This document shows positions 3,152 to 34,400 of a DNA stretch of 64,000 bases, in pieces. The DNA is from Antedon mediterranea. Lineage: Eukaryota > Animalia > Echinodermata. Location of the stretch: positions 17,501,365 to 17,565,364 of the forward strand of contig NC_092678.1 of NCBI RefSeq assembly GCF_964355755.1, written 5' to 3'. A program made the position numbers and the translations under genes. Every line of letters begins with the position of its first letter. Within the stretch, counting starts at the first letter, position 1. A model generated the notes under the pieces. The model did no database searches and had not been told where the DNA came from. It worked only from the letters and a program-made list of their open reading frames with translations.

Positions 3152-6100
3152 CTCTAGTAGCTAGATCAACTTATTTCGTATGCACTTTGAGGTCCAGAGA
3201 ATTTTACTTCAGAAATTGGTTTAGGGTGGTCAAACAATCATTTTTGGCTTGGTTACATATTTTGAAAATGTGGCGAAAGGTCAAAAGGTCAGGTCAAAGG
3301 TTATAAGATCAAACACCATTATGTCCTTAAATCGCGACAACCACTGGTCACAGCGAAGTAATTTTGGTCTCAAATTGATCAGAAGGTAGACATTCATATT
3401 CAGTCTAATGAAACATTTTAGTCGAAAATGACCGAAAATGCCATTTTTGAACTTTGACCCATAAACCAGGGCATGTCTGTATCTCCGTAACTATTGGCCG
3501 TAGAGACTTGAATTTTGGCTCAAATTGTTCGAAATATACATTTAGTTATTTGTTACACATTTTGAACAATGTTACAAAAGGTCAAAAGGTAAAGGCCAGG
3601 GGTTATATGAATAAACACAAATAGGTATTTGTATCTCGGCAACCACTGGTCACAGCGAGTAAATTTTGGTCTCAAAATGTTCAGAAGCTATACATTAATA
3701 TTCAGTCTAATGAAACATTTTAGTAAAAAATGACCGGAAATGACATTTCTGACCTTTGACGTACATACCAGGGCATCTTCTTATCTCTGTAAGTACAGGT
3801 CGTAGAAACTCAAATTTAGTATCAAATTGTTAGAAATACACATATTTACATTCATTCTAACAGAAAATTTGGATAAATTAAAAGATGATCATAAATACTA
3901 TTAATTACTAATCTTTTAAATGAAAAACATATCTACCCAACTTATCATTAGACAGTAATGTTATGCAATAATTGATGCCTAATGATTTCATTATACTGTA
4001 GGAATTAAAACAAATCCTTTGCTGTTTGTAATAATTGTAGGCCTACTTTTGCTTATAATAATGCTAGAAATTATTGTTTACCCCCGAACATTTTGAGAAT
4101 GCTAGAAGTAATTTACTGTAGTTACCCGTATAAAAGCCTCGGGCATTTATTTATTCAGGGAAGGCGTTTATTTTGTTGGGTGTAATAATGGTAACATGTA
4201 TAATCAAATAAATACACCCCAGATATATATATATATATATATATAAAATATATATTATATAATAAGAATAATAACGGGATTAAACCTCATTCTATTCTGG
4301 AGGAAGTACAATCATGTAATAAAAGGTATCGGAGACCACAATAATAGACCAAGTCATTGTCATTATTACGTAACACTGTTGCATAATAGTTTTGAATGTC
4401 AACGACAAAACTTATACATATACACGTCTGTTCCCAGTGTAGATAAAAAAACAATATATATTTCTGGAGATTTATTATCAATACCACTAGAAACTTTGAC
4501 ATGTTTTAGGTACTGAATGCATTGACAATAAAAGCATCAGAAGTTTATCATGATAAAATCATACTACAACACTGTACTACAGTACACAAGGGTGTTTTCA
4601 GGAAAGCTGGACATATTGTACAATAGTAATGAAACTATGTATTGGCATTTAAAACTATGCAAAAGATTGTTGTCAAATTGTAGTTACAAACAAATAGATG
4701 ATAGAATGAAGATCCATTATGAGTGCAATCGTGTTAGGATAATGATGTGTCATTGTTTTATATCATTATACTGCAGCTGGCACCTGGAGGTGAAGATCCA
4801 TTTAATGGAATCTATCACTTTTATTTTAAAAGACAGAAACATTTCGTTAAAAAGCATAAAGAGGAAAACGAATCATGTAAAGTACCTTTTATCAGTTGAG
4901 AAACGAAATACAATTATTAATATTAGAGTATTCCTTCAAATAAACGCCACCATTCCCTCAAATAGAACACCATGTGGAATAAACATGCCACATGCATTTA
5001 CACAATAATTGTATCACGTCAACACATTTCATTAACTACCATAATCTACAATTTACCAAGCTTTTTGACATAATTTTATCACTTTTTGATATTAATTGTG
5101 CAGTATTTTTTCCCATCTAGGTGGTATTTATTTGATTATACATGTTACCATATTATACCCCAAATAAAGATGCCTCCTTTCCCCCTAAAAACCATTTTGA
5201 ACAATAAATGCCAGGGGCGTTTAATCGGATACATATGGCAAGTTACTTCTAGCATTCTGAAAAGAACTGTTGAGCTTAACGTTTCTATCAAAATGTCCTC
5301 GGGGACAGCAATAACTAGTACTTGAAATTAAAACAATTTAAAGTATCAGTTATTGCATAACATTACTGTCTAAGGATAAGTTGTGTAGATATGTTTTTTG
5401 TTTGAGACATTAGTAAGAGTATTTCTGTTCATCTTTTAACCACATTTTCTATTACAATGAATGTAAATATGTATATTTCGAACAATTTGATACCAACTTT
5501 AAGTTTCTACGACCTGTACTTTATGAGATATGAAGATGCCCTGGTATGTGAGTCAAAGGTCAGAAATGGCATTTCTTATCATTTTTGACTAAAATGCCCC
5601 ATTAGATGGAATATAAATGCATGCCTTCTGAACATTTTGAGACCAAAATTGACTTGCTGCGACCAGTTGTTGCCGAGATAAAAGTACCTTTTTTATTTGT
5701 TCAAATAACCCTTGACCTTGATCCTTTGACCTTTTGTAACCTTTTTCAAAATGTGTAACAAATAACAAAACATATATTTCGAACAATTTAAAACCAAATT
5801 CAAGTGTCTACGACCAGTAGTTACGGAGATACATACATGCCCTGGGTTGTGGGTCAAAGGTCATAAATGGCATTTCCGGTAATTTTTTACTATAATGTCC
5901 CATTAGACTGAATATAAATGTATACCTTCTGATTAATTTAAGACCAAAATTACCTCGTTGTGACAAGTGGTTGCTGAGATTTAAGGACATATTTATGTTT
6001 GATCTTATGACCTTTCACCTTGACCTTTTGACCTTTCGCCACATTTTCAAAATGTGTAACCAAGCCAAATATGATTGTTTAACCACCCTAAACCAATTTC

Positions 6101-6157
6101 TGAAGTCAAATTCTCTGGACCTCAAAGTGCATACGAAAGTTGATCTAGCTACTAGAG
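3152..6157. mobile_element. Non-autonomous foldback-type DNA transposon with about 1-kb modular TIRs
   Basis: CTCTAGTAGCTAGATCAAC at the left end is matched by GTTGATCTAGCTACTAGAG at the right end, flanked by TA/TA. The arms (about 3152-4200 and 5150-6157) are built of about 150-bp subrepeats with TGACCTTTGA and AAATTGTTCAGAA motifs. No transposase is present and the superfamily is uncertain. Confidence 0.85.
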
Positions 6158-6954
6158 TATATGGGGTTCTTTTTACTTTATAGTGAGAGAGTGATTGTTT
6201 AGAGGGTTAGGTTTAGTTAAATTTAGGAACTTAAGTAGTTCGGCTATCTTTCACATAAGGGGCCCCAACCTTTGTACGAAATAAAAATTTGCTTCCCGGC
6301 ACCTGACAAAATGTTTTTTTTTTTAAACGAACAAATTGTAAACAATTCAATTCGGAACTACTTAAGATTTTTTTATACACGGAGTATTACTATTAATACT
6401 TTGAAATATCTGTAAGCTACAAAATGAAAGCAATACTGGATTTGGGATGCGCTTCAGAAAATGACAACGTGCATTAGCGAGCAGAGATTAAAACTTTTTA
6501 ATGATAAAATATGAATTGGTAAGTTATCGAATTAAGATGTGAAGTATTGGAATAATAACAGTGATTACGGACTCAACACAAAAAGTAGTCGAAATTAGAT
6601 GATGCGCTCGGACACAAACATTTTGGGTGTATTTTTGTTGATATTTGATATTTAGCGGACTGGATTCCTTTTATTTGTGTGTGTGTGTTTTTATTTACAT
6701 TTTTGAAACAATTACACAAAACTATACACCCAACGCTATTTATTTGTTTTGTGGAAAGACGACACCTAGGTTATTTGGATTCGTTTTATTTGTGTGGTTT
6801 TTTTTTTTTTTGTTCATTTACATTTTTTTCCATGTGTTTTTTTTTCTATTTTGTTGTGTGCATTTGTTCGTATCTTTTTTGCTAGTTTTATAATTACATT
6901 GTGGTTTAGTTTTGATTTTTAGCTTTAAACGGTGATACTTAATTAGTACACATG

Positions 6955-10790: not shown

Positions 10791-13084
10791 ACCGTAAAAC
10801 TTTAAAAAGAAGCTCATGGGCTTCTTCTTTATTAGGGCTCTTGGCTGGGCTTCTTTTCGAGATTACTTTTACAAATGAGAGGGACTTCGAAATGAATTAG
10901 CATGCTGTAATTGTTGTCAATTGCCACTACTGTACAACAATACGTATTTTTTTACATTTTAAATATTTGCAGACAAGAAGAAGATACAATGAAAGTGTCA
11001 ATCCTATCTTTATTGTGTGTTGTGCCTGTGTTTGTATATACTTAACTAACCGTCACACTTCAGTGATTCTATTGTGATGGGTATCAACACAAGCACAGCA
11101 CAACCATATGGTTTATGCAAATTAGACCTAAATATTATGTATACTTGTGCAGTGTTCTTTTGTAATATGTACTTGTTGAGTAGATACAATTACAGCTTAG
11201 CCTGAAGTGGACTGAGGTTTAGAGGCTTAAAGAAGCCTAGAGTTAGAGTGAGGGCTGGATTAAAGGGTTTATTTAGAAGCATGAAGATGCTGAATGACCT
11301 ACAGTAGTAGTATAAGTCTTATGTAGCCCACAGCTCAGCTAGAAAAAGCACGTGTTTGTATTATACTCACTTTATAGGCATATCATTATATCGTTGTAAT
11401 TATGGTATAACCAATGGTTAAGTATTTCTCAAAATAAAGTTTGTTATTTATTTGTAGTAAATCGGATCGATGTATGGATTTACGGATAGAAACAGAAATA
11501 TGGAATTAAAGTCTGCAGTATTGAATATTGTTTTGTGCAGAATTACATGAAGTACGGTAGCATTTGGAAAAAACAATCATTGTACAATAAATATATGATG
11601 CTTGATTGTTGTGATAACGAAGTGTTGTAAGGTCATTAATGCAAAATCGAAAATGCAATAACAAAAACATTTAGAAATCAATAAACTGTAAAAATGATTG
11701 ATATAAACACGATTAAATTATTAGTCTTCGTCTGGAAATTTCAGAGGAAACCTTGTTTTTAAGTTTTACGAGTTGTACACAAAGCGTTATCGACAAACAG
11801 TTTATTTCCGCAACACTTACTTTGGAATTAACGGAATATGCTTTATCGCATTCTCAGTTCAGAAATCAGGAGCCATCGTCTGCAGAAGAAAAAAAACCGT
11901 AAAAACAATTATTAAAAATGGAAAGAAAATGAGTTGTTGTTTCCGATAATCATAATGCGTTTCTTTTCAAACGGGGTAGTGGGATATTCCTGAGGAAATG
12001 ATCGGCCTCGTTTGGGATTGTTACAATTGCCTACATGTTCACATGCAAACTAGGTAGGCCTTAGTGCCAAGCCGGTTTACACTGAGCATTTACACGTCAC
12101 GCGAAAAGATTCGCCAGAAGGTAGACAAAGTTCTATCGATTTTGCGAGTTGCAAATTCACCACTTTAAATTAAAATCCACTGGCGTTCAACACAGGCATG
12201 GGAACGGTGAGACGGAGGGCAATTGACCTCCCAAAACTTAAATCATGGGATGGCAAATAAAAATAGCATTTTAAAGAGATTTCTTTTCAACAACATATTC
12301 TTATAACTCCTTTCGCTCAGCAATACAAACATGATAATATAATAATAACAGCCAGACCGAAACAATGCGCTTGTCGCGAGAAAGAGATTTCTGTAAAATG
12401 CTTCTGAATTTGTAAAACTTAATGGAATTGGTATGAATGTTTTTTTACCGGTCACATTATTGTAACTGCTTAAATATAAAAACTGAAAAAAAACAAACAA
12501 TGTTTGTCTATAATATACAGAGAATATATAGAGAGAGTAGTAGATGTAGGACTTCAGGCCGTAATGTACCCCCAGGGCATATTTCATATTTCTATTGTTT
12601 AATTTCTAGGTATTGTAATGATAATTAGTGAAAGGTCATTCTTTGTACCAGACCGGAAAGGAATGTCATATCCCCAGGGTATATATTATATTTTCTATTG
12701 TTTAATTTCCTGTTATTGTAATATTAATTAGCGAAAGGTCATTCTTTGTTAGAGAAGGGGGTTTGTTATTTTGGCGGGGTTTTCGTTTTGGCCTGGGGTT
12801 ATAATTGTAGTTGGTGATGAATTTGTATTTTAAATATATTAGTGAAGGTAGTTCTTTGTTTGAGGATTGCTATTGTTATTTTTAGGCGGTTTTACCATTG
12901 CATAGGTTGCCTTTGTTTAGTATATCCTAATTTCTTTTGTTCATTGTTCTTTTTGTTTGGTACAATAGTTTTGTTTTTGATATTTTAGAGCCGTTTCTTT
13001 TTAGACATTGTAAGAAGAGGGACTGTTTTTTGTGACCTTTCCAGTTGTTTCGTCTATTTTTACGTGGAGTTACAGTATTTCGCT

Positions 13085-13636
13085 ATGTCTGGAAGTATAG
13101 ATTTTTCGTTAGGTAGCTGTGTAGATACAGTTATAATTATTAGCGATGATGAGGAGACTGTTGTTACAGGTAACGATATCGGTGATCGGTACATGCGGAC
13201 CAATGAGGGTGTACCCGCCGGTGTTGATGAAGGAGTTGAGAGGGGTAGCCGGGCTGCAAGTTGTATATTTACGTACGTAGATGAGGTGGAGAGAGAATTT
13301 TTATTGAAATTGGAATATTTAGCCAGAGAAGTGTTTGTTTCTCAAGTGTTAAACATGTGTTGGATGTTAAGTAAAGCGGCTTGTTATGGTTGCGAATTTG
13401 ATAGGCCTGGTCAAAAAGATCATGACTTCTGCTGTATAAAATCTCCAGAAGAACAGATTGATTATTTTTATCGGGAGGTTCTGGATAAAGAGTATGTTAC
13501 AGACGATACCGTGTATAGTGAGTTGAATAAGTACGAGGAATATTCATTACCACGGTATAGACATTTTGTTTACTTTCTCGTAAATACCTTGACTAATTCA
13601 GAGAACCTGTATAAGTTATTGTGTGAGGATATCTAA
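13085..13636 (+). CDS. Uncharacterised 183-aa element protein with an acidic SIM-like motif and a CxxC-x9-H-x2-C putative Zn site
   Basis: Single uninterrupted ORF; the first ATG is at 13085 (the track starts at GTG 13064). It contains VIIISDDEE and CYGCEFDRPGQKDHDFCC, and the same protein is encoded on the other arm. Confidence 0.75.
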   Translation: MSGSIDFSLGSCVDTVIIISDDEETVVTGNDIGDRYMRTNEGVPAGVDEGVERGSRAASCIFTYVDEVEREFLLKLEYLAREVFVSQVLNMCWMLSKAACYGCEFDRPGQKDHDFCCIKSPEEQIDYFYREVLDKEYVTDDTVYSELNKYEEYSLPRYRHFVYFLVNTLTNSENLYKLLCEDI

Positions 13637-13842
13637 AACGTGTTTCGTACGTGCCACGGAAAAACGATTGACCGGAAAACAAACAATTAACAATGCTTTA
13701 ATCCGCACGCGTTGTAGGGAGACAATTGACAGGAAAAACAATTAATATCGCTTTAGGCTAATTACTGTTAAAAAGCTACTTCCGTACTGAGATGTTACAT
13801 ATATATCGGACCTGGTTCAATCGCAGTTTTAAAGTACCAACG

Positions 13843-14193
13843 ATGACTACCTCCTCGAAGTTATTGGATCCTAGAAAATTTTTCAACGGTCAAACAAACG
13901 ATTTGAGTAAAGCAGCGAAGCCGTCAACAAGTAAAAAATCATTTCACTCTGCCTCAGGAATTAGCGCCATGGATTATGCAGAAATGACCGGTGGTGAACC
14001 AAAGATTCCAATAACTTCAACGAATCGGATTTTTCTGTCTGAAAAACGCCATGTAGTGGCCCAGCGCTGGGGTGAAGTTGTTTATGTATGCCTTAGAGAA
14101 TTTTATCAAAGGGAAGAAAATGGTGCCTTCAAACCTGGACCTCTAGGTATTAATTTCTGCTGTGGCAAAAACTTTTTACCAATATTGATTTAA
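13843..14193 (+). CDS. PC4/Sub1-like ssDNA-binding domain 1; N-terminal part of a frameshifted PC4-PC4-ALKBH2 fusion
   Basis: RIFLSEKRHVVAQRWGEVVYVCLREFYQREENGAFKPGPLGINF matches the PC4 pattern (IREY...KPG.KGI.L). The domain's final helix WQKLFTNID continues in the -1 frame from 14163. The start is probably ATG 13843 (TATA-like at 13800, CAGT at 13824); an upstream ATG exists at 13792. Confidence 0.8.
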   Translation: MTTSSKLLDPRKFFNGQTNDLSKAAKPSTSKKSFHSASGISAMDYAEMTGGEPKIPITSTNRIFLSEKRHVVAQRWGEVVYVCLREFYQREENGAFKPGPLGINFCCGKNFLPILI

Positions 14194-15538
14194 TTCTTCA
14201 AGCCCTAGCCGACTTGCAAAGAGACATTAACTTGGTGGAGGCAGTAAGAATCCCACTTTCGGACATACTACATGTGGTAGTTAGTAGCTGGAAAGAAGAG
14301 CAGTTTGTATGTATTCGCCATTGTTACCAGGCCGAAGAAGGAGGCGAGTTTAAACCCGGCAAAAAAGGTATAAACCTTCCAAAGAGACAGTGGTACAAGT
14401 TAATTGAACAACACGGTGAAATTCAAAAGATGATTGAAGAGGTTGATAATGATAATGCGGTTACCGTCGATGGTGGTGGTGACGAAAACGATAACGGAGG
14501 ACGTTTATTCAATTCAGAGCAACAATTGCTATCCCCTGATGGGTTATCTGTGCAAAAGATAACAGGGGAAAATTTAGATTGTGATTACCTTCAACTTCTT
14601 GATAAAGGAACAGCCGATACATTGTTTAAAAAATGTGAGGAAGAGATTGACTATTTTACCGGTGATCTTGCAAAGGTGAAAGTGTACGGAAAGTGGTTTA
14701 ATATTCCTAGAAAACAGGTTAGTTCCATTATTATTTTATCCGTGGTTTTGTATTAATGACTTGTTAATTACTTGTAGGCCTATATCGTTTCCTTTGTTTT
14801 TCTTTATTTACCGCTGGGTAGCTATATGTTTAATTTACTCTTTTACTGTAAATGATTTTATTTGGGCGTGTTCATTTACATCTTGCCAAATAAGATTCTT
14901 AAATTACTATGTAATGTATGGTTTTCCCCTCTGTAGGTTTCGTTTGGCGATTCGGGCTTAACTTACAAATATTCAGGCATTACAGTACCAGCTTTACCGT
15001 GGCCACCATTCCTGAAAGATCTCCGCGATCTTTTAAAAATGGTTACTGGACATTACTTCAATTTTGTCTTGGTCAATCGGTAAATATTCTTGTTTATTAT
15101 TTTGTTTGTTTTAATTCTATTATGCAAGTGTTATTTTACTTACATACATCCTCCCTCCCCCAATGGATAATTGGGTGGGTTTTTTTTAATCTCATGTTAA
15201 AATACTTTATTTTCTATTGTATTTTGTCGTTACTCTATAGATATGCTACTGGCAGTGATTACATTGGCGAACACAAAGATGATGAAAAAGACATGAATCA
15301 CTTTAGTCCAATCGCCTCTGTATCATTGGGGCAAACACGTATGTTTAGATTTCGACATGGTGATGCGCGAGGTAAGAGTTCCAAAAGAATAATTGAACCA
15401 GTAACTGTTGATCTTAAACACGGTACATTATTAATGATGAATTATCCCACTAATGAGTACTGGTACCATTCACTGCCTAAAAATCAATCCATCAAGCTAC
15501 CAAGAATAAATCTTACGTTTAGAGATATTAAAAGATGA
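14154..15538 (+). CDS. ALKBH2: PC4 domain 2 fused to an ALKBH2-type Fe(II)/2OG DNA dealkylase; spliced 14154-14717, 14937-15079, 15241-15538
   Basis: PC4 motif CIRHCYQ...FKPGKKGINLPKRQWYKL is followed by ENLDCDY...YFTGDLAKVKVYGKWFNIPRKQ | VSFGDSGLTYKYSG...FNFVLVNR | YATGSDYIGEHKDDE...WYHSLP...PRINLTFR. GT-AG introns 14718-14936 (phase 0) and 15080-15240 (phase 2) restore the frame. The HxD...H and RxxxxxR motifs are intact. Confidence 0.92.
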
Positions 15539-18500
15539 GAGAAATTTTACGCAAACATTAGGCCTAACAGTCTTTAATAGTGATTGCAGATCTCAAGAAC
15601 ATCAACTGTTCATGATCTGTTCTCATATAGTGTAGTAGTACCAGTTAAATTACTTTTGTGATGATATTTCTACAAATGGTTGTATTATTGTATTGAAGTT
15701 AATTCACTTAGATATAGGGCTAATTCCATTGATCGTTAATAATAATATGATTGTTTGTCATTGTGTGGATAATTATTAACTTTACGAAACAAATAGCTGT
15801 ATTATTGTATTGAAATTCACTTAGATCTATACCTAATTCCATTGATCGTTAATATTCATGTGATTGTTTCCCATTGTGTGGATAAAAATTAAATAATCTC
15901 TTAAAAGTAAATTGTATTGTATTTCTAATTGTTATAAATACATGTAACAGTTTCTTATGTTTTTAACAAGTGTGCAAGTTTTTCTTTAAAGCGTTTTAAC
16001 CGTTTAGTTAGTAATTTCAAGAGAAACAGGTACTTGAAACGGATAAATGATGTCGTAACGTAGGAAACGGACTGGTAGATTAAAAGAAACGTTATAGGCC
16101 TAATAACACTAATAATAACAAACATATATTTCGTACATGTATCGATAAGTTATCTAAATATGTGTGATTAATATTATTACAATAAAGACCATGTAGATCT
16201 ACAGTAGTTTTACTGTAAGTGGTATTGTAAATAAATTTTGAATTCAATGGTGAAAAATAACAGATGTCTGCGTATTATTTAATATTACTTTTATCATAAT
16301 TGCAAACACAGGTCGATCATAATTTGAAGGCAGAAAGACGTTTTGGTTGCCAATTGTATTTTTTTTACACTTAACACATTTTAACAGAAAAACAGAAAAG
16401 CTAGACATTCAACCGGACCCCAAACATTGAAATTTGTTTACAAACAGGTTATTTCCATTAGTTATTCTAAGGCCTACTTTTTTTTCTACATGTTTATCTT
16501 TCGACTATTTTTTAAAAACTTTTTTTATGAATCTTCCGCTGTTTCGTTAGCAATTTTACAGGCCTGTGTCTTCGCTCTGTAGCCTTTTAACGGTTCTTTG
16601 TAAATGTTCTCTTATTGATGGTTACCTATAGCTCTCTCACATCCCTTAATCTAGCACCATTTTATGAAAGATTCCTCAGTAAGGGGTTTATTACTGACGC
16701 TAGGTATCATCGACAGGGAATATTAGACAAAACATGATGTCACTATTTTTAAAAGGTTTTCTCATTCAAGAACAGCTGACGTCAATGAAGAATACGTTAC
16801 AACACGATAACTATCGGACAGCAGCAACAAACATCAACCAATCACAAATCTGAGCTACTAGTTAAATAATAAATAAACGAAACAAAGACATCATTTTCGT
16901 CTCGAAGTTATATTAACGTAAATTTTTCCTTCACAAAATCACAGGAGACGCGTTTAACGTTTCCAATTGTAAAGCAGTTTCAAATTACGTCGCATCATAC
17001 TGCTAGTACCTTACTGTAAAATATCTACCGATATATATATTTTGCTAGTCACTCATCATTTTATTACATCACATTATTCAACTCATCAGGTGTAATATCT
17101 TTACACAAATCCTTTATATCTTTACTTTTTTTTCTTACCAGCTCATAACAAACACGAATATTACTCTAAAGGATTTATACTCAATGTACCATAAACCCCC
17201 CCCCCCCCCTTTTTTTTTAAAGTCTGCATAGCGGCACGAGAAAACAATTAATAATGGGGATAAAAAGTTTGTCTTACATTGTTATACAGTAACCTGTGTT
17301 TTTCTCGGTTTACACCAACTCATTGTTTATAATTATGTATGTTAATGTCAATATAGTGTTTCTCTAGTACAGTGTATTACCTGTTTATACCCGTAAAGTT
17401 TGCAGGCCTCCATGTAGTTGGTATATTTTGTAAAAATTGTATTTATGTTTACTTTTTAAAAATCGTTTTATTTGCATTTTATCTCCTCCTGGTTAAAATG
17501 AGTGTGATGTTGCTTAAAAAGTTAACAAGTATAACCACTAAAACGGTTCATTACCTGTAGGAAATCATCAATATTGTAACATGCGGTAAACAATACAAAT
17601 TAGTTTCACAAATCATTTAAACAATAACACTAACAAATTATTGGAATTTAAGAAAATAAAGGTGTACAGATTTTATTTCGATAAAAAAAGTGTACAAAAA
17701 TAACTTTACAAAAAATTTACAGAATAAATTAACAAAAAAAAAATAATTAATTCTTATAAAGGTGTACAGTGTACATTGGCCAGACATTCTTAAAACGAGG
17801 TGTACAGCTTTTATTTAAAAAAAAGTATACAGAAATAATTTTACAAAAAGTGTATAGAATAAATTTACAAAAAAAAGTTCACACATTAAACTCATGCTTA
17901 TAAAAGTGTACATGTCGATGTGTACATGTGACGTGGCATTACCATTAAGAAACAAATACAAACCAAACACTTAACAACTAAAACAGCATAGCGATCGTTT
18001 TCGTACGAAAAACAATACCTCCAGCAGGTATATCAACTTTAGTATTTTAAGTATAGGGCCTACACGTTACAAACACACACACCCTCTTGAATTGTAGGTA
18101 CAGGCCTTTTGCCGTTCGTAATTCAAACTGTTCGGAAAATTGAAGTTAATATTCTGAGATTTATGTCTATGATTGCATTCTGCCTTCCCTCTCAGGAGCT
18201 TAGACTTGTCAACGGTCTAAAAGAGCTGTAATGCAGGATGCGAAACATAAAAGTTTATTAATAAACCGTATATTATAACGATAAAGAAACGAATGTACGA
18301 TACACCAATATAACAGTACAATAACTGATTAACTGAAGACTTGAAGTCTACTGTATTCCTACAATCATTCAAGTAGACATTGTTTGCTGAGTGTATGATA
18401 CTTTCTCCAAAGAGAATTCGAACGATGTGTTTTTTTTTTCCGGACGTGTTTCTACGGTTATCAGAACGGGTCAATAATAATTTAAACAAAAAAAAAAAAA

Positions 18501-18847
18501 AAAAAACAAAAAAAAAAAAAACAAAAAAAAAAAAAAAAAAAAAACGAACAGCCTACTAACTTCCAAACAATCAATACCTAAATAAGCTGAACCTAACCCA
18601 CTAATTAATAATCTCTTCCATACATCAAAATCGGCCGAAAATGATCTGAACATTGAAAAGTGGACACGGTCGTCTGTTCTTCTTATCTGTTGCCACGGCT
18701 TGTGACATCCTCGTTGGTGATAAAGCCATGCGGTCTACACATTTATGATGACCACATCGCATAAAATGTTCAGGGAACTTATTTTTCAACTCTCTGATAC
18801 AATGTTTAAATACAAGTGGACTGGAAACCATTTAGGAATAGGGTTTT

Positions 18848-19477
18848 CTAATAATAAAAGTTGTGTAAAACTTTAGTTATGGCCAAGGGGAATTGGTCAA
18901 GACTTGGAGTAAATGGTCAAAACCGGTGGCAAATGGTCAAGACCGAGAGAAAAATTAATGTACACCATTTTATAAGTTTATCGTCAATTATTGTGTTAAC
19001 ATTCATTTATGAATAAACCTGTATACGTATTCAATAATAAAAAAAAAGAATAACTTTCTTATGCTTAATATCATGAATAACATATCTTTAGTGGTTAAGG
19101 TAATATATTATTTCTCTGTATACTGACGTCACACATATAGATAAAGAGAGACTGTCTATTAATAAAAGTTGTGTAAAACTTTAGTTATGGTCAAGGGGAT
19201 TGGTCAAGACTTGAAGTAAATTGTCGAGACTTGGAGTAAATGGTCGAGACCGGGGGAAAGTGGTCAAGACAGGGAGAAAAATTAATGTACACAATTTTAT
19301 AAGTTTATAGTCACTTATTGTGTTAAATTTCATTTATGATTAAACCTGTATACGTATTCAATAATAAAAAATTAATATTCCTTCACTTAATATCATGAAT
19401 AACATATCTTTAGTGGTTAAGGTATTATATTATTTCTCTGTATACTGACCTCACAAATATAGATAAAGAGAGACTGT
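18848..19477. repeat. Two-copy tandem repeat (about 308 and 322 bp) in the asymmetric part of the palindrome
   Basis: Units start CTA(A/T)TAATAAAAGTTGTGTAAAACTTTAG at 18848 and 19156 and contain about 20-bp AAATGGTCAAGAC subrepeats. Confidence 0.9.
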
Positions 19478-19656
19478 AACTAAATGTTTATTAATTATTA
19501 GGGTTACAGTGAGAGTTCTATGCAAACATTAAAAGGCCAATTAACGAGCCACCCAACTTAATTAAGTACCGGTACCTAACTAACAAATGCGCTCAAACTC
19601 TATACAGGTTACAACTCTACAAAAGAGGACATTTTATTTTTAAACTAGGGTTAAAC

Positions 19657-19965
19657 ATGAAAAAGGTCAATTACTTGAACTCTGAACATTGGAAAAAGGG
19701 GTTGTGTCAATGGACACTTGAACTTTACCTCTATACAAGGACGAATGGACAGTGACAATTTACCATTAAACTCTGGTCAACCGTTTTATTGGGGGGCTCT
19801 CAAATTTCGACGAAGTCGAAAATTGAAACTCTCATGTTTTTGTGACCAGAGTTTAATGGTAAATTGTCACTGTCCATTCGTCCTTGTATAGAGGTAAAGT
19901 TCTAGTGTCCATTGACACAACCCCTTTTTCCAATGTTCAGAGTTCAAGTAATTGACCTTTTTCAT
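19657..19965. repeat. Innermost inverted repeat (123-bp arms, 63-bp loop) marking the true fold-back centre
   Basis: 19657-19779 and 19843-19965 are reverse complements with one mismatch. The loop contains TCAAATTTCGAC-GAA-GTCGAAAATTGA (19800-19826). Confidence 0.92.
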
Positions 19966-22900
19966 TGTATCAGAGAGTTGAAAAATAAGTTCCCTGAACA
20001 TTTTATGCGATGTGGTCATCATAAATGTGTAGACCGCATGGCTTTATCACCAACGAGGATGTCACAAGCCGTGGCAACAGATAAGAAGAACAGACGACCG
20101 TGTCCACTTTTCAATGTTCAGATCATTTTCGGCCGATTTTGATGTATGGAAGAGATTATTAATTAGTGGGTTAGGTTCAGCTTATTTAGGTATTGATTGT
20201 TTGGAAGTTAGTAGGCTGTTCGTTTTTTTTTTTTTGTTTTTTTTGTTTTTTTTTTTTTTTTTTTTTTTTTTTTTGGTTTTTTTTTTTAAAATTATTATTG
20301 ACCCGTTCTGATAACCGTAGAAACACGTCCGGAAAAAAAAAAACACATCGTTCGAATTCTCTTTGGAGAAAGTATCATACACTCAGCAAACAATGTCTAC
20401 TTGAATGATTGTAGGAGTACAGTAGACTTCAAGTCTTCAGTTAATCAGTTATTGTACTGTTATATTGGTGTATCGTACATTCGTTTCTTTATCGTTATAA
20501 TATACGGTTTATTAATAAACTTTTATGTTTCGCATCCTGCATTACAGCTCTTTTAGACCGTTGACAAGTCTAAGCTCCTGAGAGGGAAGGCAGAATGCAA
20601 TCATAGACATAAATCTCAGAATATTAACTTCAATTTTCCGAACAGTTTGAATTACGAACGGCAAAAGGCCTGTACCTACAATTCAAGAGGGTGTGTGTGT
20701 TTGTAACGTGTAGGCCCTATACTTAAAATACTAAAGTTGATATACCTGCTGGAGGTATTGTTTTTCGTACGAAAACGATCGCTATGCTGTTTTAGTTGTT
20801 AAGTGTTTGGTTTGTATTTGTTTCTTAATGGTAATGCCACGTCACATGTACACATCGACATGTACACTTTTATAAGCATGAGTTTAATGTGTGAACTTTT
20901 TTTTGTAAATTTATTCTATACACTTTTTGTAAAATTATTTCTGTATACTTTTTTTTAAATAAAAGCTGTACACCTCGTTTTAAGAATGTCTGGCCAATGT
21001 ACACTGTACACCTTTATAAGAATTAATTATTTTTTTTTTGTTAATTTATTCTGTAAATTTTTTGTAAAGTTATTTTTGTACACTTTTTTTATCGAAATAA
21101 AATCTGTACACCTTTATTTTCTTAAATTCCAATAATTTGTTAGTGTTATTGTTTAAATGATTTGTGAAACTAATTTGTATTGTTTACCGCATGTTACAAT
21201 ATTGATGATTTCCTACAGGTAATGAACCGTTTTAGTGGTTATACTTGTTAACTTTTTAAGCAACATCACACTCATTTTAACCAGGAGGAGATAAAATGCA
21301 AATAAACGATTTTTAAAAAGTAAACATAAATACAATTTTTACAAAATATACCAACTACATGGAGGCCTGCAAACTTTACGGGTATAAACAGGTAATAAAC
21401 TGTACTAGAGAAACACTATATCGACATTAACATACATAATTATAAACAATGAGTTGGTGTAAACCGAGAAAAACACAGGTTACTGTATAACAATGTAAGA
21501 CAAACTTTTTATCCCCATTATTAATTGTTTTCTCGTGCCGCTATGCAGACTTTAAAAAAAAAAAGGGGGGGGGGGGTTTATGGTACATTGAGTATAAATT
21601 CTTTAGAGTAATATTCGTGTTTGTTATGAGCTGGTAAGAAAAAAAGTAAAGATATAAAGGATTTGTGTAAAGATATTACACCTGATGAGTTGAATAATGT
21701 GATGTAATAAAATGATGAGTGACTAGCAAAATATATATATCGGTAGATATTTTACAGTAAGGTACTAGCAGTATGATGCGACGTAATTTGAAACTGCTTT
21801 ACAATTGGAAACGTTAAACGCGTCTCCTGTGATTTTGTGAAGGAAAAATTTACGTTAATATAACTTCGAGACGAAAATGATGTCTTTGTTTCGTTTATTT
21901 ATTATTTAACTAGTAGCTCAGATTTGTGATTGGTTGATGTTTGTTGCTGCTGTCCGATAGTTATCGTGTTGTAACGTATTCTTCATTGACGTCAGCTGTT
22001 CTTGAATGAGAAAACCTTTTAAAAATAGTGACATCATGTTTTGTCTAATATTCCCTGTCGATGATACCTAGCGTCAGTAATAAACCCCTTACTGAGGAAT
22101 CTTTCATAAAATGGTGCTAGATTAAGGGATGTGAGAGAGCTATAGGTAACCATCAATAAGAGAACATTTACAAAGAACCGTTAAAAGGCTACAGAGCGAA
22201 GACACAGGCCTGTAAAATTGCTAACGAAACAGCGGAAGATTCATAAAAAAAGTTTTTAAAAAATAGTCGAAAGATAAACATGTAGAAAAAAAAGTAGGCC
22301 TTAGAATAACTAATGGAAATAACCTGTTTGTAAACAAATTTCAATGTTTGGGGTCCGGTTGAATGTCTAGCTTTTCTGTTTTTCTGTTAAAATGTGTTAA
22401 GTGTAAAAAAAATACAATTGGCAACCAAAACGTCTTTCTGCCTTCAAATTATGATCGACCTGTGTTTGCAATTATGATAAAAGTAATATTAAATAATACG
22501 CAGACATCTGTTATTTCTCACCATTGAATTCAAAATTTATTTACAATACCACTTACAGTAAAACTACTGTAGATCTACATGGTCTTTATTGTAATAATAT
22601 TAATCACACATATTTAGATAACTTATCGATACATGTACGAAATATATGTTTGTTATTATTAGTGTTATTAGGCCTATAACGTTTCTTTTAATCTACCAGT
22701 CCGTTTCCTACGTTACGACATCATTTATCCGTTTCAAGTACCTGTTTCTCTTGAAATTACTAACTAAACGGTTAAAACGCTTTAAAGAAAAACTTGCACA
22801 CTTGTTAAAAACATAAGAAACTGTTACATGTATTTATAACAATTAGAAATACAATACAATTTACTTTTAAGAGATTATTTAATTTTTATCCACACAATGG

Positions 22901-23232
22901 GAAACAATCACATGAATATTAACGATCAATGTAATTAGGTATAGATCTAAGTGAATTTCAATACAATAATACAGCTATTTGTTTCGTAAAGTTAATAATT
23001 ATCCACACAATGACAAACAATCATATTATTATTAACGATCAATGGAATTAGCCCTATATCTAAGTGAATTAACTTCAATACAATAATACAACCATTTGTA
23101 GAAATATCATCACAAAAGTAATTTAACTGGTACTACTACACTATATGAGAACAGATCATGAACAGTTGATGTTCTTGAGATCTGCAATCACTATTAAAGA
23201 CTGTTAGGCCTAATGTTTGCGTAAAATTTCTC

Positions 23233-24617
23233 TCATCTTTTAATATCTCTAAACGTAAGATTTATTCTTGGTAGCTTGATGGATTGATTTTTAGGCAGTG
23301 AATGGTACCAGTACTCATTAGTGGGATAATTCATCATTAATAATGTACCGTGTTTAAGATCAACAGTTACTGGTTCAATTATTCTTTTGGAACTCTTACC
23401 TCGCGCATCACCATGTCGAAATCTAAACATACGTGTTTGCCCCAATGATACAGAGGCGATTGGACTAAAGTGATTCATGTCTTTTTCATCATCTTTGTGT
23501 TCGCCAATGTAATCACTGCCAGTAGCATATCTATAGAGTAACGACAAAATACAATAGAAAATAAAGTATTTTAACATGAGATTAAAAAAAACCCACCCAA
23601 TTATCCATTGGGGGAGGGAGGATGTATGTAAGTAAAATAACACTTGCATAATAGAATTAAAACAAACAAAATAATAAACAAGAATATTTACCGATTGACC
23701 AAGACAAAATTGAAGTAATGTCCTGTAACCGTTTTTAAAAGATCGCGGAGATCTTTCAGGAATGGTGGCCACGGTAAAGCTGGTACTGTATTGCCTGAAT
23801 ATTTGTAAGTTAAGCCCGAATCGCCAAACGAAACCTACAGAGGGGAAAACCATACATTACATAGTAATTTAAGAATCTTATTTGGCAAGATGTAAATGAA
23901 CACGCCCAAATAAAATCATTTACAGTAAAAGAGTAAATTAAACATATAGCTACCCAGCGGTAAATAAAGAAAAACAAAGGAAACGATATAGGCCTACAAG
24001 TAATTAACAAGTCATTAATACAAAACCACGGATAAAATAATAATGGAACTAACCTGTTTTCTAGGAATATTAAACCACTTTCCGTACACTTTCACCTTTG
24101 CAAGATCACCGGTAAAATAGTCAATCTCTTCCTCACATTTTTTAAACAATGTATCGGCTGTTCCTTTATCAAGAAGTTGAAGGTAATCACAATCTAAATT
24201 TTCCCCTGTTATCTTTTGCACAGATAACCCATCAGGGGATAGCAATTGTTGCTCTAAATTGAATAAACGTCCTCCGTTATCGTTTTCGTCACCACCACCA
24301 TCGACGGTAACCGCATTATCATTATCAACCTCTTCAATCATCTTTTGAATTTCACCGTGTTGTTCAATTAACTTGTACCACTGTCTCTTTGGAAGGTTTA
24401 TACCTTTTTTGCCGGGTTTAAACTCGCCTCCTTCTTCGGCCTGGTAACAATGGCGAATACATACAAACTGCTCTTCTTTCCAGCTACTAACTACCACATG
24501 TAGTATGTCCGAAAGTGGGATTCTTACTGCCTCCACCAAGTTAATGTCTCTTTGCAAGTCGGCTAGGGCTTGAAGAATTAAATCAATATTGGTAAAAAGT
24601 TTTTGCCACAGCAGAAA
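23233..24617 (-). CDS. ALKBH2: Mirror copy of PC4 domain 2 plus ALKBH2; exons 24617-24054, 23834-23692, 23530-23233
   Basis: Reverse complement of 14154-15538 with the same splice sites and catalytic motifs. It differs by S>L, I>N, M>T and one silent change. Confidence 0.92.
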
Positions 24618-24928
24618 TTAATACCTAGAGGTCCAGGTTTGAAGGCACCATTTTCTTCCGTTTGATAAAATTCTCTAAGGCATACATAAACAACTTCACC
24701 CCAGCGCTGGGCCACTACATGGCGTTTTTCAGACAGAAAAATCCGATTCGTTGAAGTTATTGGAATCTTTGGTTCACCACCGGTCATTTCTGCATAATCC
24801 ATGGCGCTAATTCCTGAGGCAGAGTGAAATGATTTTTTACTTGTTGACGGCTTCGCTGCTTTACTCAAATCGTTTGTTTGACCGTTGAAAAATTTTCTAG
24901 GATCCAATAACTTCGAGGAGGTAGTCAT
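24578..24928 (-). CDS. Mirror copy of PC4 domain 1 (same frameshift)
   Basis: Reverse complement of 13843-14193 with one R>T change. Confidence 0.8.
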   Translation of the reverse strand: MTTSSKLLDPRKFFNGQTNDLSKAAKPSTSKKSFHSASGISAMDYAEMTGGEPKIPITSTNRIFLSEKRHVVAQRWGEVVYVCLREFYQTEENGAFKPGPLGINFCCGKNFLPILI

Positions 24929-25134
24929 CGTTGGTACTTTAAAACTGCGATTGAACCAGGTCCGATATATATGTAACATCTCAGTACGGAAGTAGCTTTT
25001 TAACAGTAATTAGCCTAAAGCGATATTAATTGTTTTTCCTGTCAATTGTCTCCCTACAACGCGTGCGGATTAAAGCATTGTTAATTGTTTGTTTTCCGGT
25101 CAATCGTTTTTCCGTGGCACGTACGAAACACGTT

Positions 25135-25686
25135 TTAGATATCCTCACACAATAACTTATACAGGTTCTCTGAATTAGTCAAGGTATTTACGAGAAAGTA
25201 AACAAAATGTCTATACCGTGGTAATGAATATTCCTCGTACTTATTCAACTCACTATACACGGTATCGTCTGTAACATACTCTTTATCCAGAACCTCCCGA
25301 TAAAAATAATCAATCTGTTCTTCTGGAGATTTTATACAGCAGAAGTCATGATCTTTTTGACCAGGCCTATCAAATTCGCAACCATAACAAGCCGCTTTAC
25401 TTAACATCCAACACATGTTTAACACTTGAGAAACAAACACTTCTCTGGCTAAATATTCCAATTTCAATAAAAATTCTCTCTCCACCTCATCTACGTACGT
25501 AAATATACAACTTGCAGCCCGGCTACCCCTCTCAACTCCTTCATCAACACCGGCGGGTACACCCTCATTGGTCCGCATGTACCGATCACCGATATCGTTA
25601 CCTGTAACAACAGTCTCCTCATCATCGCTAATAATTATAACTGTATCTACACAGCTACCTAACGAAAAATCTATACTTCCAGACAT
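25135..25686 (-). CDS. Mirror copy of the 183-aa SIM/Cys-His protein
   Basis: The translation is identical to 13085-13636. Confidence 0.75.
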   Translation of the reverse strand: MSGSIDFSLGSCVDTVIIISDDEETVVTGNDIGDRYMRTNEGVPAGVDEGVERGSRAASCIFTYVDEVEREFLLKLEYLAREVFVSQVLNMCWMLSKAACYGCEFDRPGQKDHDFCCIKSPEEQIDYFYREVLDKEYVTDDTVYSELNKYEEYSLPRYRHFVYFLVNTLTNSENLYKLLCEDI

Positions 25687-26372
25687 AGCGAAATACTGTA
25701 ACTCCACGTAAAAATAGACGAAACAACTGGAAAGGTCACAAAAAACAGTCCCTCTTCTTACAATGTCTAAAAAGAAACGGCTCTAAAATATCAAAAACAA
25801 AACTATTGTACCAAACAAAAAGAACAATGAACAAAAGAAATTAGGATATACTAAACAAAGGCAACCTATGCAATGGTAAAACCGCCTAAAAATAACAATA
25901 GCAATCCTCAAACAAAGAACTACCTTCACTAATATATTTAAAATACAAATTCATCACCAACTACAATTATAACCCCAGGCCAAAACGAAAACCCCGCCAA
26001 AATAACAAACCCCCTTCTCTAACAAAGAATGACCTTTCGCTAATTAATATTACAATAACAGGAAATTAAACAATAGAAAATATAATATATACCCTGGGGA
26101 TATGACATTCCTTTCCGGTCTGGTACAAAGAATGACCTTTCACTAATTATTATTACAATACCTAGAAATTAAACAATAGAAATATGAAATATGCCCTGGG
26201 GGTACATTACGGCCTGAAGTCCTACATCTACTACTAGAGAGAGATGTAAAGTGTACAGCAGAATAAAATAAAAGACCAATAAAAAAGAATAAAATGTTAC
26301 TTAGTTTTGTGGATTGTCAGTGTTAAGGTAAGATAACACAGTGCTGTGTATTCATATACTACTGTATATTAC

Positions 26373-26526
26373 CGTAAAATCTTCAGTGCTTCTTGTCGAA
26401 TCCATCGGACACATCAACTCTCGGAATTTTCCCTTTAATATTTCTTTACATGCTGCAAGGGTAACTCTCGGCTCGCAGACTTCAATTTTATAAACAAGGC
26501 AGCAAATGCGACGATGATCCGATTTC
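26373..26526 (-). pseudogene. Diverged hinge-region exon of a GRL101/RXFP-type LRR-GPCR
   Basis: After an AG acceptor the phase-2 frame reads KSDHRRICCLVYKIEVCEPRVTLAACKEILKGKFRELM, which resembles the type-C LGR hinge xDxxxCCxxxxVxxCxPxxxxxSSCxDLL. The following TM1 is not convincingly preserved. Confidence 0.55.
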
Positions 26527-26793
26527 CTATTTTTGGTGATGTATAAATAAAAACATGATATAGTTATTCACTTAGACCATGTATCAAGAAAAAATAATAA
26601 ATTTCCTGAAAAAACTGTAATTTATAGCCAAAAATTCAGATTGGCGTTTATGTTTTATAACTGAAAACATTTGTTTTTTTTCTTTATATTTTTAGTAGTA
26701 AACTTTATTCAAACTACAAATGACCTATTCATTTTTTATGTTTTTTTGTACAATACACATGTTATCGAAATATCTTGCTATATATCGACATAG

Positions 26794-26868
26794 TAATTCG
26801 ATAACGATGTCTTACCTGAATATACGTTCGTACTTTTAAGTCGATTAATTTGATTAGATTTAAGTTAT
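26794..26868 (-). pseudogene. Decayed LRR exon
   Basis: Reads *LKSNQINRLKSTNVYSGKTSLSN with an in-frame stop. The expected donor is CTATGT rather than GTATGT. Confidence 0.45.
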
Positions 26869-26921
26869 CTTATATCTTATGCGAAATTCATGTTACGAAT
26901 GAGAGTACGTTTATTGTAATA

Positions 26922-27054
26922 CATAATATAAAAATAACGCTTGAAAGAGAACGACGTTTCGACTCCATCATGGGGTCATTATCAAGTCCATTGATAATGA
27001 CCCCATGATGGAGTCGAAACGTCGTTCTCTTTTAAGCGTTATTTTTATATTATG
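26922..27054. repeat. 133-bp near-perfect palindrome, probably an inverted pLTR remnant of a Penelope-like element
   Basis: 64-bp arms with one mismatch and a 5-nt loop GTCCA. It contains GACGTTTCGAC...TTGATAATGACCCCATGATGGAGTCGAAACGTC. Confidence 0.65.
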
Positions 27055-31002: not shown

Positions 31003-31400
31003 CATTAAAAGTCTTTCGGAGATGGCCTTGTGAGAAACACTCATCCACTAAATATAAAAATTTGGGTCCGATATTGGTCTTTACGTTCTTGCTGTACGGA
31101 GGGAGGATTGAACCAAATGATGTTTCTGTTTCGGGTTTTCTTTTGGTTGCTTGTTCAGGTGTAGCTCATGTTCATATCCACTATTTCTAAGTGCTTCTTG
31201 GTACTGAGGTATTGCTGCATTAAACGAATTTTCATCGGATGAGATGTTTGAGAGTCGTTTATTTATTGCTAGTGGTATATTGCGTAATTGGTGGCCGATG
31301 ATTACTTTCACGATGTACATATAATGGCGTATTGTTTCGTTTGGTGTATATGGGTGAAAGGTATCTGTCCTCAGATCGAGTGTTATGTCAAGAATACCAT
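31003..31400 (-). mobile_element. Penelope-like retroelement fragment (RT thumb/linker)
   Basis: LDITLDLRTDTFHPY...NIPLAINKRLSNISSDENSFNAAIPQYQEALRNSGY, then a frameshifted [29 protein letters not shown]. These are characteristic PLE motifs. Confidence 0.88.
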
Positions 31401-34400
31401 CCACGTGTAAAATACAATTATCCCCTTTTCTTTCCCTAAATTTTCCATTATTTAATGAAGAATAGAATTTGATTAGAATGTATTTTTGTAGCCGTCTATC
31501 AGTACTGTTTCCAAAATAAATTAAGATTATGAAGATGTTGACATTAATTTTGTTATTGTTTCTTCCAATTGGACAATAAACACATTCTATTGGATAAAAG
31601 TTGTTTGCAGACCTAAAAGTAGCCACCTTTAATTATGAATAATTATGTAATGAAACGTGTTATCAGACACTTTTTTTTATTATTATTTATCAGATACTTT
31701 TTTCTAATTTGAGAATTGTTAAGAATTCTCGCATTATATGTAAATTATATTTAAATAGGGGTCAAAGGTAAAAAATGACATTTATTGTCAGTTTTTGAGG
31801 ATAAATCATCATTAGAGTGGATAGCATGTATATTCAAAAGTTTTTTATAAAGTCTGTAATTTTCCCTTTTTCTCAGCATGTTGTTATTTTATTTACATCT
31901 TTTAAATTTATTTTTACTTTAAAACAGAAAAAATTCTTACTGTATGTGAATTCTGTGGAAGGTGTTAAATGTGACAATTGATAGTAACACTTATGATCAT
32001 TGTTTTAAATAAATATTCATTAGAGTGGATAGAAATATGTATGTTTTGAACAATCTTAGACAAAAAAAATTTGTTACCGAGATATGGCCCTCAAGTGAAA
32101 ATAAGGTCAAAAGTTGTATTTCATTAAATGTTATATAAATATGGATATTCTGAACAATTTATGACAAAAATAAAGTCTTTATGACCAGGGGTTACCGAGA
32201 TATGACCCTCTGGTGGAAATAATGTCAAAGGTCAAAAGTGATATTTTCCATCAAATTTCAAAAATATGTTTCATTAAAGCTAATATAAATATGGATACTC
32301 CAAACAATTTAAAACAAAAATAAAATCTTTATGACCAGGGGTTACCAAGATATGACCCTTATGTAAAAATAAGGTCAAAAGTGGCATTTACGGTCATTTT
32401 GAACAAAAACTTTTCATTATAGTACATAGAAAAGTGCATATTCTGAACAATTTAAGACCAAAATCAGACCTCTATGATCAGTCTTTGTCAAGTACCGTCT
32501 ATATTTATGATTTTGATAAATCCAAGATGGCCACCAAAATGGCCCCCAAAAACCCCCATGGGACAATATTTCGTCTTGGGAACATCAAAAAATGTTAATT
32601 ACATATATTCAGGATTACAAAAATGTACATTAAAAAAATACATCATGGGGGTGCACGGTAACCCCTCCTTCCTACCCTACTAGATACAATGACCTCATGG
32701 CAATGTTTTAAAGACGCCGTTGTGTGCTCATATGCGGGTTCATGCCTATGACCAGGGTGACACTGTGTTAAATATGGCAAACATCATATTTGAAAAAGAA
32801 AGCAATGAAATGTTTAGTGAGAGAAAGGAAACTGCATGTGTTGTGTATTGCTTTTAGACATAAACAGGTACCTCCGTACGAGAATCGGGTGTCCAACGGA
32901 CGAGTACCATGTATGTATATCGAAAACAAAGCTATTATAAAATGTATTTTGCAGACTATGTCTACGACACATAATCTGTTGTATGGCAAAGTTACTAAAA
33001 GAATTAATGAATATGATTCCGATAATTGTACAGAGCATCAAACAACTACATGTGGATTATTAAAAATGTTGACAAACATGGCGTTTCATACGTATTATGG
33101 TACGTGTACACACTGTATAGAAAACATCGAAACGCGACAACAGAAAAAAGACAATAACAGAGACTTGGGACAAGTCTATACAGTATTAACTTACAGTTTT
33201 GAAAGTGATGAAGCAAAAGCAGAAAATGCACCTTGATCTATGGTAGTTATATCGTTATCATATAAATACCTGCAAATATTGAAAAAAAAAGACACACATT
33301 TCAAACGGATTGATTTAAAACAATATTAATAATAATACTGTACAACAATACAATAAATAGATAACCACTACATTTGTCTGCTATATTTCACAGTACAGTT
33401 ATTTGTATTCAGCATTTCAGTGGGCAATTTAGACTTCGTTTGGCACTCGAAACAATGTCAAATGAAAGGCAAGCTAATATTGCCATGAGGAGGTGCAAAT
33501 CTGAGGGAGAGGGGAAAATGTAATGTGTAAAAACAGATATCACCTCACCTTTATTTATAAAATTTGAAAATCAGAAAAAAGGGGAGAATGTAGTGTATTA
33601 TTTGTTGTTGTTGACAGATGCCTAAACTCTAGAAAATGATAAATTAAGTTTATCTTACGGACGGATAACGCTAATAATAACAATTATTAATTCATAGTTA
33701 TGCTTTATAGCTTTTTGGTTTTTTTTTTTGTGCACTTAGAAGAACTTATTTAAAGTGCATTTTAAGTATTGTTTTTCTTCTAGATTATTTCAGTCATCAC
33801 AATAGTTAATGTTTGTTTTATTTGGAGGTTCAGACATAAACACAAAGTACAAATGTATATAGTGCACTATGCTGTGTGGAATAAAACTGAAACTGAATGT
33901 ACGTACCACCACATTAGGTAACCGATGCGCCCTCATTATGACGTTTGTTATAAGAGAAAGATACAAACCATGTGTTGCGCGTGCGAATAAAGAACAAGTG
34001 CAGCTATTCCACCGTACGGAGGGAAAGATAACCAATGCCTCTCATAACAACATTATTTTTCATTTAATAATATGTACTAATAATGTTAATAACAACTAGA
34101 TTTGAACTCGTAACTATGGACGAGTTAGGTTATCCGCAGCGAAAATGCCACGTGTACGTCATACTTTAGAATATTGCACACAGAAAAACGATTACGCTAT
34201 TGAAAAAATGTTAGTGTGCTCTCTATTATATGTTACGGCTAAGTATATAGAGTATACACTATATATCTGTATACGTACTACAACCAGTGCAGAATAGGTG
34301 AAAATACCGGGACCCGCTTTGTCATCCAATTTTTACCATGATGATGTCATCAAAATGAAACACGTAGATAGCAATTTTGGAAGGAAATTATCTGAGCAAC

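Follow-up and report, generated by a model that had tools for sequence, protein, structure and literature searches.

A palindromic element with Maverick-type ends and repair-gene cargo in Antedon mediterranea, probably maintained as a snap-back satellite

The DNA considered here, referred to as the window, is a stretch of 64,000 nucleotides from Antedon mediterranea (RefSeq assembly GCF_964355755.1, contig NC_092678.1, positions 17,501,365 to 17,565,364). It contains an element of 13,700 bp that is bounded by the terminal motifs of a Maverick (Polinton) transposon, consists mostly of two inverted copies of one segment, and carries two genes on each arm, one of them a fusion of two PC4 domains with an ALKBH2-type domain. 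We describe its structure, its genes and its relatives, and then consider how it may have originated and been maintained.

Results

Boundaries and arms

Self-BLAST of the window gave one large inverted pair, 12536-18804 against 26235-19963, which aligns over 6275 columns at 99.586% identity with 18 mismatches and 4 gaps. The element delimited by this pair runs from 12536 to 26235, and its outer features are as follows.

12530..12535, plus strand: left target-site duplication, AGAGAG (self-BLAST)
12536..18803, plus strand: left outer arm, starting AGTAGT (self-BLAST)
12567..12749, plus strand: pair of direct repeats just inside the terminus, each ~80 bp long and 86% identical to the other, with mirror copies at 26022-26204
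19964..26235, minus strand: right outer arm, ending ACTACT (self-BLAST)
26236..26241, plus strand: right target-site duplication, AGAGAG (self-BLAST)

The two outer arms account for 91.5% of the element. A preliminary description of the window had reported a 13.7-kb element with AGTAGT...ACTACT ends and a 6-bp target-site duplication, more than 90% of it an inverted duplication, and each of these statements agrees with the alignment; the same inventory was right about arms and ends and passed over the two genes per arm and the central hairpin. Beyond the two AGAGAG copies the sequences are mutually unrelated and single-copy within the window. Two random hexamers of the window would be equal with a probability of 0.0006; because the insertion site is AG-rich, the duplication taken alone is modest evidence. 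The termini bear out the earlier assignment to the Maverick type, in that (AGT)2//(ACT)2 is the commonest Maverick end motif and is accompanied by 6-bp duplications (PMC8097293). Rfam gave no match in 12000-27000.

Genes on the arms

Each arm carries the same two genes close to its terminus.

13085..13636, plus strand: ORF1 (open reading frame 1), 183 amino acids (aa), unnamed family with an invariant C-x-G-C...Q-x2-H-x2-C motif; mirror copy at 25135-25686, minus strand
13843..15538, plus strand: PC4-PC4-ALKBH2 fusion gene, exons to 14717, 14937-15079 and 15241-15538, two GT-AG introns
23233..24928, minus strand: mirror copy of the PC4-PC4-ALKBH2 gene (ORF lists, exon model)

The ALKBH2 domain of the fusion matches the human protein at E=6.5e-72 (PDB 3rzg for ALKBH2, 1pcf for PC4/Sub1), and its HxD, H and R-x5-R motifs are present in both arms. 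It is 74% identical over 205 aa to the ALKBH2 of another crinoid, and this identity, together with the introns, suggests from the sequences that the gene was captured from the host as DNA. In contrast to animal ALKBH2, two PC4 domains stand in place of the N-terminus, and a mobile element has multiplied the gene. The closest proteins to the arm gene are themselves from Antedon mediterranea, at 65-97% identity, which places the host among the feather stars (crinoids). A frameshift near 14155, present in both arms, severs the first PC4 domain, and relatives such as P0001 and P0006 read through this position.

At E values of 0.001 or lower, 24 relatives of ORF1 were recovered, among which 22 have the invariant Cys/His motif in common; two low-complexity matches, P0020 and P0023, were excluded from the alignment, and one relative, P0029, is fused to PC4. 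Twelve metagenome loci were collected, with ORFs inspected for nine and for L001, and L002, L006 and L011 were used. In 2 of the 12 (L006 and L011), short-motif relatives of ORF1 adjoin A32/IVa2-type ATPases, an adjacency that provides a weak link to Polinton-like viruses. The match in L001 proved to be spurious and from a phage, and the remaining loci were giant-virus-like or bacterial-looking DNA. L006 (714-2796) and L011 (404-1585) are small metagenomic contigs on which short ORFs ending in a C-x-G-C...H motif lie beside the ATPases. As to the identity of ORF1, there was no curated Pfam match, none among 25 candidates and no Atlas match, which implies neither novelty nor absence; a structural model with a pLDDT (predicted local distance difference test) score of 75 did not clearly resemble any fold (Foldseek E 4.6 and Z 5.6 at best). 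Scans of viral contigs with ORF1, the ORF1 alignment, the PC4 frame and the terminal 22-mer returned nothing useful.

Neither the ORF lists nor Pfam revealed a gene for a polymerase, integrase, capsid, protease or ATPase in the element, the first three not having been searched for across frameshifts. The longest open frame is at most 215 aa, and none matches the pPolB or integrase families. Pfam was run on seven frames and on 35 stop-to-stop frames of at least 38 aa within 15539-19660; the 35, which cover the inner arm and the centre, yielded nothing of relevance. When 111 A32-type ATPases served as tblastn queries, no packaging ATPase was matched in the element. Within the scope of these searches, the earlier remark that replication, integration and virion genes are absent is upheld. 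A frame at 18628-18831 (minus strand) has a RING-like look, for which Pfam and further checks gave no support.

The centre of the element

The 1.16-kb middle consists of a segment, here called U, followed by a hairpin.

18804..19658, plus strand: segment U, 855 bp, which continues the left arm and is missing from the right arm here; contains a tandem duplication of ~310 bp at 18847-19477
19657..19965, no strand: central hairpin, its 123-bp stem pairing 19657-19779 with 19843-19965 at one mismatch, its 63-nt loop at 19780-19842
19800-19826, no strand: inner 11-bp stem with a GAA loop, within the central loop
19963..19965, no strand: AT dinucleotide at which the hairpin meets the right arm and where the mirror copy of U was likely deleted

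The hairpin has a z score of -26. Its recurrence was followed in contigs aligned to the element from 4 of 11 runs (X2, X5, X6 and X8), representing four samples, three studies and two organism labels; for the centre, 32 of 246 contig pieces and 21 of 27 loose ends were listed. Among these, the junction of arm and U is bridged in X6 and X8; X5 clearly bridges that of U and hairpin, while X6 and X8 do so at the limit of 31 letters; and the loop is spanned by a contig in X6. No listed record crosses from the stem into the right arm at 19963, and there are no loose ends at the outer or inner stem ends among the 21 listed. Both X6 and X8 contain a contig with a diverged loop. Its terminal stretches, 25 letters each, are exactly reverse-complementary and share the same four substitutions and one gap relative to both stem arms of the window. 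In X6, two U contigs have depths of 67.9 and 103.8 and two loop contigs depths of 35.3 and 56.8, giving U/loop ratios of 1.9 and 1.8 if paired by divergence, where the pairing is ours and depth cannot be equated with copy number.

The family is therefore likely to be a near-perfect palindrome around the loop, of ~14.5 kb, from which the window copy would have lost the 855-bp mirror of U on the right. The loss sits between two AT dinucleotides, and an 8-bp inverted match brackets U, an arrangement that would suit slippage past a folded strand. The converse, in which U is a separate insertion into the left arm, is less likely, since the arm-U and U-hairpin junctions recur elsewhere. The preliminary description had supposed that one end was copied back on itself in this element. 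The fold-back geometry stands; the event cannot be placed in the window copy itself, as the 63-nt loop is present in other genomes and in a diverged subfamily. Because the fold-back loop is common to these, the palindromic element is a long-lived lineage with cargo genes.

Variants of the centre were seen in two runs: in X2 one of the two 310-bp units is missing (18851-19160), and in X5 there is a 732-bp deletion up to the loop (19043-19776). Asymmetric centres therefore recur. Contigs of X6 and X8 match only 18828-18864, possibly as part of another repeat or subfamily. Segment U also contains a 26-bp imperfect palindrome at 19558-19583, ~75 bp before the central stem.

Concerted evolution of the arms

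Outside homopolymers, 12 of the 18 substitutions between the arms remain (0.19%), six in the outer half and six in the inner half. At 12607 (covered by two runs) and 13256 (covered by all four), both arms of the window carry bases that are missing from all the contigs aligned, and both have the frameshift near 14155, whereas the differences at 15040 and 17374 are changes of the left arm only. Since the arms have private variants and the frameshift in common and the left-arm changes came later, one arm served as the template from which the other was copied or corrected, after the split from sibling lineages, with drift following. Plain copying of a folded strand would leave such differences in place; their removal requires either that mismatches in the duplex be repaired or that fold-back synthesis start anew at the central stem. 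By analogy, the concert of the arms fits what might be expected of a racket-like single-stranded intermediate, of the template-switch products of phi29, or of the snap-back genomes of adeno-associated virus (AAV).

A multi-copy family

In the preliminary description the element was treated as a one-off; this is revised to a family. Four clusters of the arm gene comprise 18 Antedon accessions, 16 sequences and 7 contigs. One sequence, P0011, matches the window's three left-arm exons exactly and was excluded from the pair test because it may be the window copy itself, leaving 15 sequences and 105 pairs. Only three of these pairs of distinct proteins are separated by no more than one residue, and in each of the three both members lie on one contig, as against 14 of 105 pairs overall (permutation p=0.0018). 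With two further sequences represented by two same-contig accessions each, the figure becomes 5 of 5 (p=2.5e-5), one of these perhaps being isoforms of a single gene. Same-contig gene pairs occur on 5 contigs. The sequences form two subfamilies, ~16% apart (84% identity), which are separated in a quick tree with mostly open forks.

Read depth at the terminus exceeds that of the flanks in two runs: in X2 the terminal bin has a depth of 26,554, compared with 1,018-4,349 in the flank bins, and in X8 a depth of 925, compared with 242-734. A search for other palindromic copies, as called for earlier, yielded likely ones through the near-identical pairs on shared contigs, with no other insertion site or target-site duplication read. 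The corresponding search for an empty allele gave a contig of X6 that tracks the left flank to 12526, continues with 49 unaligned letters and is at flank depth. Its divergence just before the element hints at an empty site.

Other features of the window

An older inverted repeat pair lies to the left of the element (3150-3976 and 5345-6159), 86.6% identical over 828 columns, and a 133-bp AT-rich hairpin, 94.7% self-complementary, lies 700 bp to its right at 26922-27054. An open frame of 183 aa at 31081-31632 (minus strand) looks like the end of a Penelope-type reverse transcriptase; Pfam gave no support. From 32800 to 64000 the window is a complex region of tandem or segmental repeats with a period near 15 kb (39179-42396 against 54021-57263, 96.6%) and many nested copies at 75-94%. 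Also present, at 51577-53213, is a structure like a small foldback element, with inverted arrays of 15-16 bp C-rich/G-rich units at both ends and a 22-bp tandem array between them.

Discussion

Origin and maintenance

The snap-back geometry, the Maverick ends, the missing core genes, the centre common to separate samples and the concerted arms are properties of the sequences, and they probably reflect a stable snap-back satellite, one that is replicated and inserted by the polymerase and integrase of a helper Maverick. Self-complementarity around one fold-back point is near-complete, comprising 91.5% of the window copy and in addition the 123-bp stem, and would be fully symmetrical in the family; the label of satellite fits this evidence, while a defective-interfering genome, the other class named earlier, would also have to reduce the replication of its helper.

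A possible sequence of events is as follows. Strand-displacement synthesis from one terminus of an ancestral element would have changed templates at the site of the present 63-nt loop and continued back along the strand, so as to produce a molecule of ~14.5 kb with two identical origin ends. When such a molecule is replicated, the displaced strand could fold into a near-complete duplex, in which one arm would be repaired or re-synthesised from the other; the corresponding pattern, with arms alike within a copy and copies diverging from each other, is seen. The element would move as a unit, and the scar suggests that a helper integrase inserted the window copy with a 6-bp duplication as the result. 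The arms have since drifted by 12 clear substitutions, and the mirror of U may have been lost either before or after insertion. The predicted cargo, an ALKBH2-type dealkylase joined to two PC4 single-strand-binding domains, would suit the repair of displaced single-stranded DNA.

Several observations weigh against this interpretation. No helper with these termini was identified, although no proper search for one was possible; the terminal 22-mer had no match in viral contigs, and the lack of an Antedon-named ATPase among the 111 A32-type matches is uninformative on the question. The links of ORF1 to packaging ATPases depend on short, weak matches in 2 of 12 loci. Protein pairs reveal neither orientation nor distance, and tandem copies or assembly duplicates could mimic them. 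The contigs are of short-read type, come from 4 of 11 runs and were partially listed, and no record spans the element. With regard to depth, the first terminal bin of X6 is no deeper than the flank, and in X6 and X8 coverage of the outer gene block exceeds that of the inner arm, from which it follows that some relatives have only part of the arm in common. The U/loop ratio is 1.4 for the diverged variant in X8, where the second loop variant is not visible, and ranges from ~1.3 to 2.0 in X2; here too depth does not equal copy number, and the matching of U and loop variants was the analyst's choice. Finally, contigs of X2 and X5 depart from the window sequence at 19070 (19036-19112) with identical other letters, and X2 has a depth spike there; this too may reflect another repeat or subfamily.

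Alternative explanations

The alternative that survives best, which we nevertheless regard as unlikely, is an autonomous Maverick parent with gene-bearing terminal inverted repeats (TIRs) of ~7 kb, from which the family would descend by internal deletion, making a copy-back event unneeded. Insect polintons with gene-duplicating TIRs of ~2 kb exist (10.1101/2025.02.07.637071), the same-contig gene pairs fit this origin equally well, and the greater depth of the outer gene block in X6 and X8 is in its favour. Such a parent should, however, leave loose ends running from 19780 or 19842 into other sequence, and there are none among the 21 listed of 27, nor does any listed contig run past the loop into other sequence; the only loops seen, in two subfamilies, are of 63 nt, and the TIRs of vertebrate Mavericks measure 46-1,447 bp (PMC8097293).

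Considerably less probable is a foldback-type DNA transposon from a different superfamily, which a cut-and-paste transposase would mobilise and which resembles a Maverick at its ends by coincidence. The lack of a Maverick core gene and of an identified helper would be explained, and long-TIR foldback elements such as Galileo exist. Coincidence would nonetheless have to account for exact (AGT)2//(ACT)2 ends combined with a 6-bp duplication, for a size within the Maverick range, and for relatives of ORF1 that lie beside packaging-type ATPases or are fused to PC4.

It is less probable still that a normal Maverick was rearranged in place, by TIR conversion or by alternative transposition of a MITE (a miniature transposable element with inverted repeats) at the centre, so that the palindrome never moved as such. 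The unbridged junction at 19963 would be compatible with this, and the hairpin is bordered by AT at either end, as a MITE that had made a 2-bp duplication would be. On the other hand, the centre consisting of U, hairpin and loop recurs in other samples and in the diverged subfamily, gene pairs are found on 5 contigs, and the contig of X6 hints at an empty site. With respect to the MITE in particular, the 305-bp hairpin falls short of the copy number of one: its depth is no greater than that of U, U is the sole flank seen, and 0 of 21 listed loose ends are at its termini. The hairpin is thus not a free MITE, and we dropped its role as the driver of alternative transposition.

Least credible is a fold-back artefact of long-read sequencing or assembly, a type of error that is documented (PMC12870357) but which is at odds with the different flanks bearing a direct 6-bp repeat, the asymmetric centre, the even spread of the 12 clear substitutions over the arms and the presence of the same hairpin in independent samples.

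Relation to known systems

Palindromic molecules with two identical protein-primed ends are familiar from yeast pGKL1 hairpin plasmids, phi29 mini-replicons in vitro and adenovirus inverted-repeat derivatives, all of them laboratory products that are not known to show integrase-type insertion or captured host genes. Closer to the snap-back satellite that we favour are the snap-back subgenomes of AAV (PMC8235507) and the subgenomic molecules that phi29 produces through template switching (PMC4974454), in which likewise one end of a linear genome is copied back and propagation is helper-dependent. These forms arise afresh in infections and form no integrated families, whereas in Antedon the fold-back centre is inherited across subfamilies and the copies are chromosomal. 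A racket-like single-stranded intermediate is the standing model of Polinton replication, derived from sequence (secondary account, PMC4196379).

With animal Mavericks the element has in common its (AGT)2//(ACT)2 ends, its 6-bp duplication, a length within the 12.7-24.6 kb of vertebrate members and accessory genes beside the terminus (PMC8097293). It differs in that no core genes were found, in that its inverted repeats are 6.3 kb (likely 7.2 kb in the family) rather than 46-1,447 bp, and in that its cargo gene has introns whereas the intact core ORFs of animal Mavericks are described as intronless (PMC8097293). The element falls outside the autonomous Mavericks; in its workings it resembles a non-autonomous one, and its membership depends on its ends. 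Butterfly polintons that lack polB or have ~2-kb TIRs are similar in being mobile without a polymerase of their own or in duplicating genes inside their inverted repeats, but they are reported to retain most core genes and a long unique middle (10.1101/2025.02.07.637071); in the present element the core genes went undetected altogether, and the 63-nt loop is likely to be all that there is of a unique middle.

Among literature listings and abstracts we found no description of palindromic Mavericks, with Repbase, most subscription journals and supplements outside the scope, and among listings and abstract openings no paper on a PC4-ALKBH2 fusion in Polintons. Repbase records non-autonomous Polintons. 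What the Antedon element adds is the fold-back hairpin common to subfamilies and the cargo of a repair gene.

Implications

A further suggestion, which we put forward tentatively, is that elements of this kind form a heritable class of satellite, existing as a 7-kb duplex with the conserved hairpin at one end and a protein-primed terminus at the other, with one arm rebuilt in each cycle and a length that could be packaged; the host-captured, intron-bearing PC4-PC4-ALKBH2 gene, as the element's own module for protecting and repairing single strands, could then benefit the helper virus or modulate it.

Palindromes with arms that agree inside each copy and differ from one copy to the next are a fossil record of Maverick replication chemistry, and the differences between the arms provide an internal clock for each insertion, as in the case of long terminal repeat pairs. 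Such elements would escape published surveys that start from combined polymerase and integrase matches or that set an upper limit of 2.5 kb on TIRs. The PC4-PC4-ALKBH2 fusion suggests that host DNA repair has been recruited by virus-like transposons.

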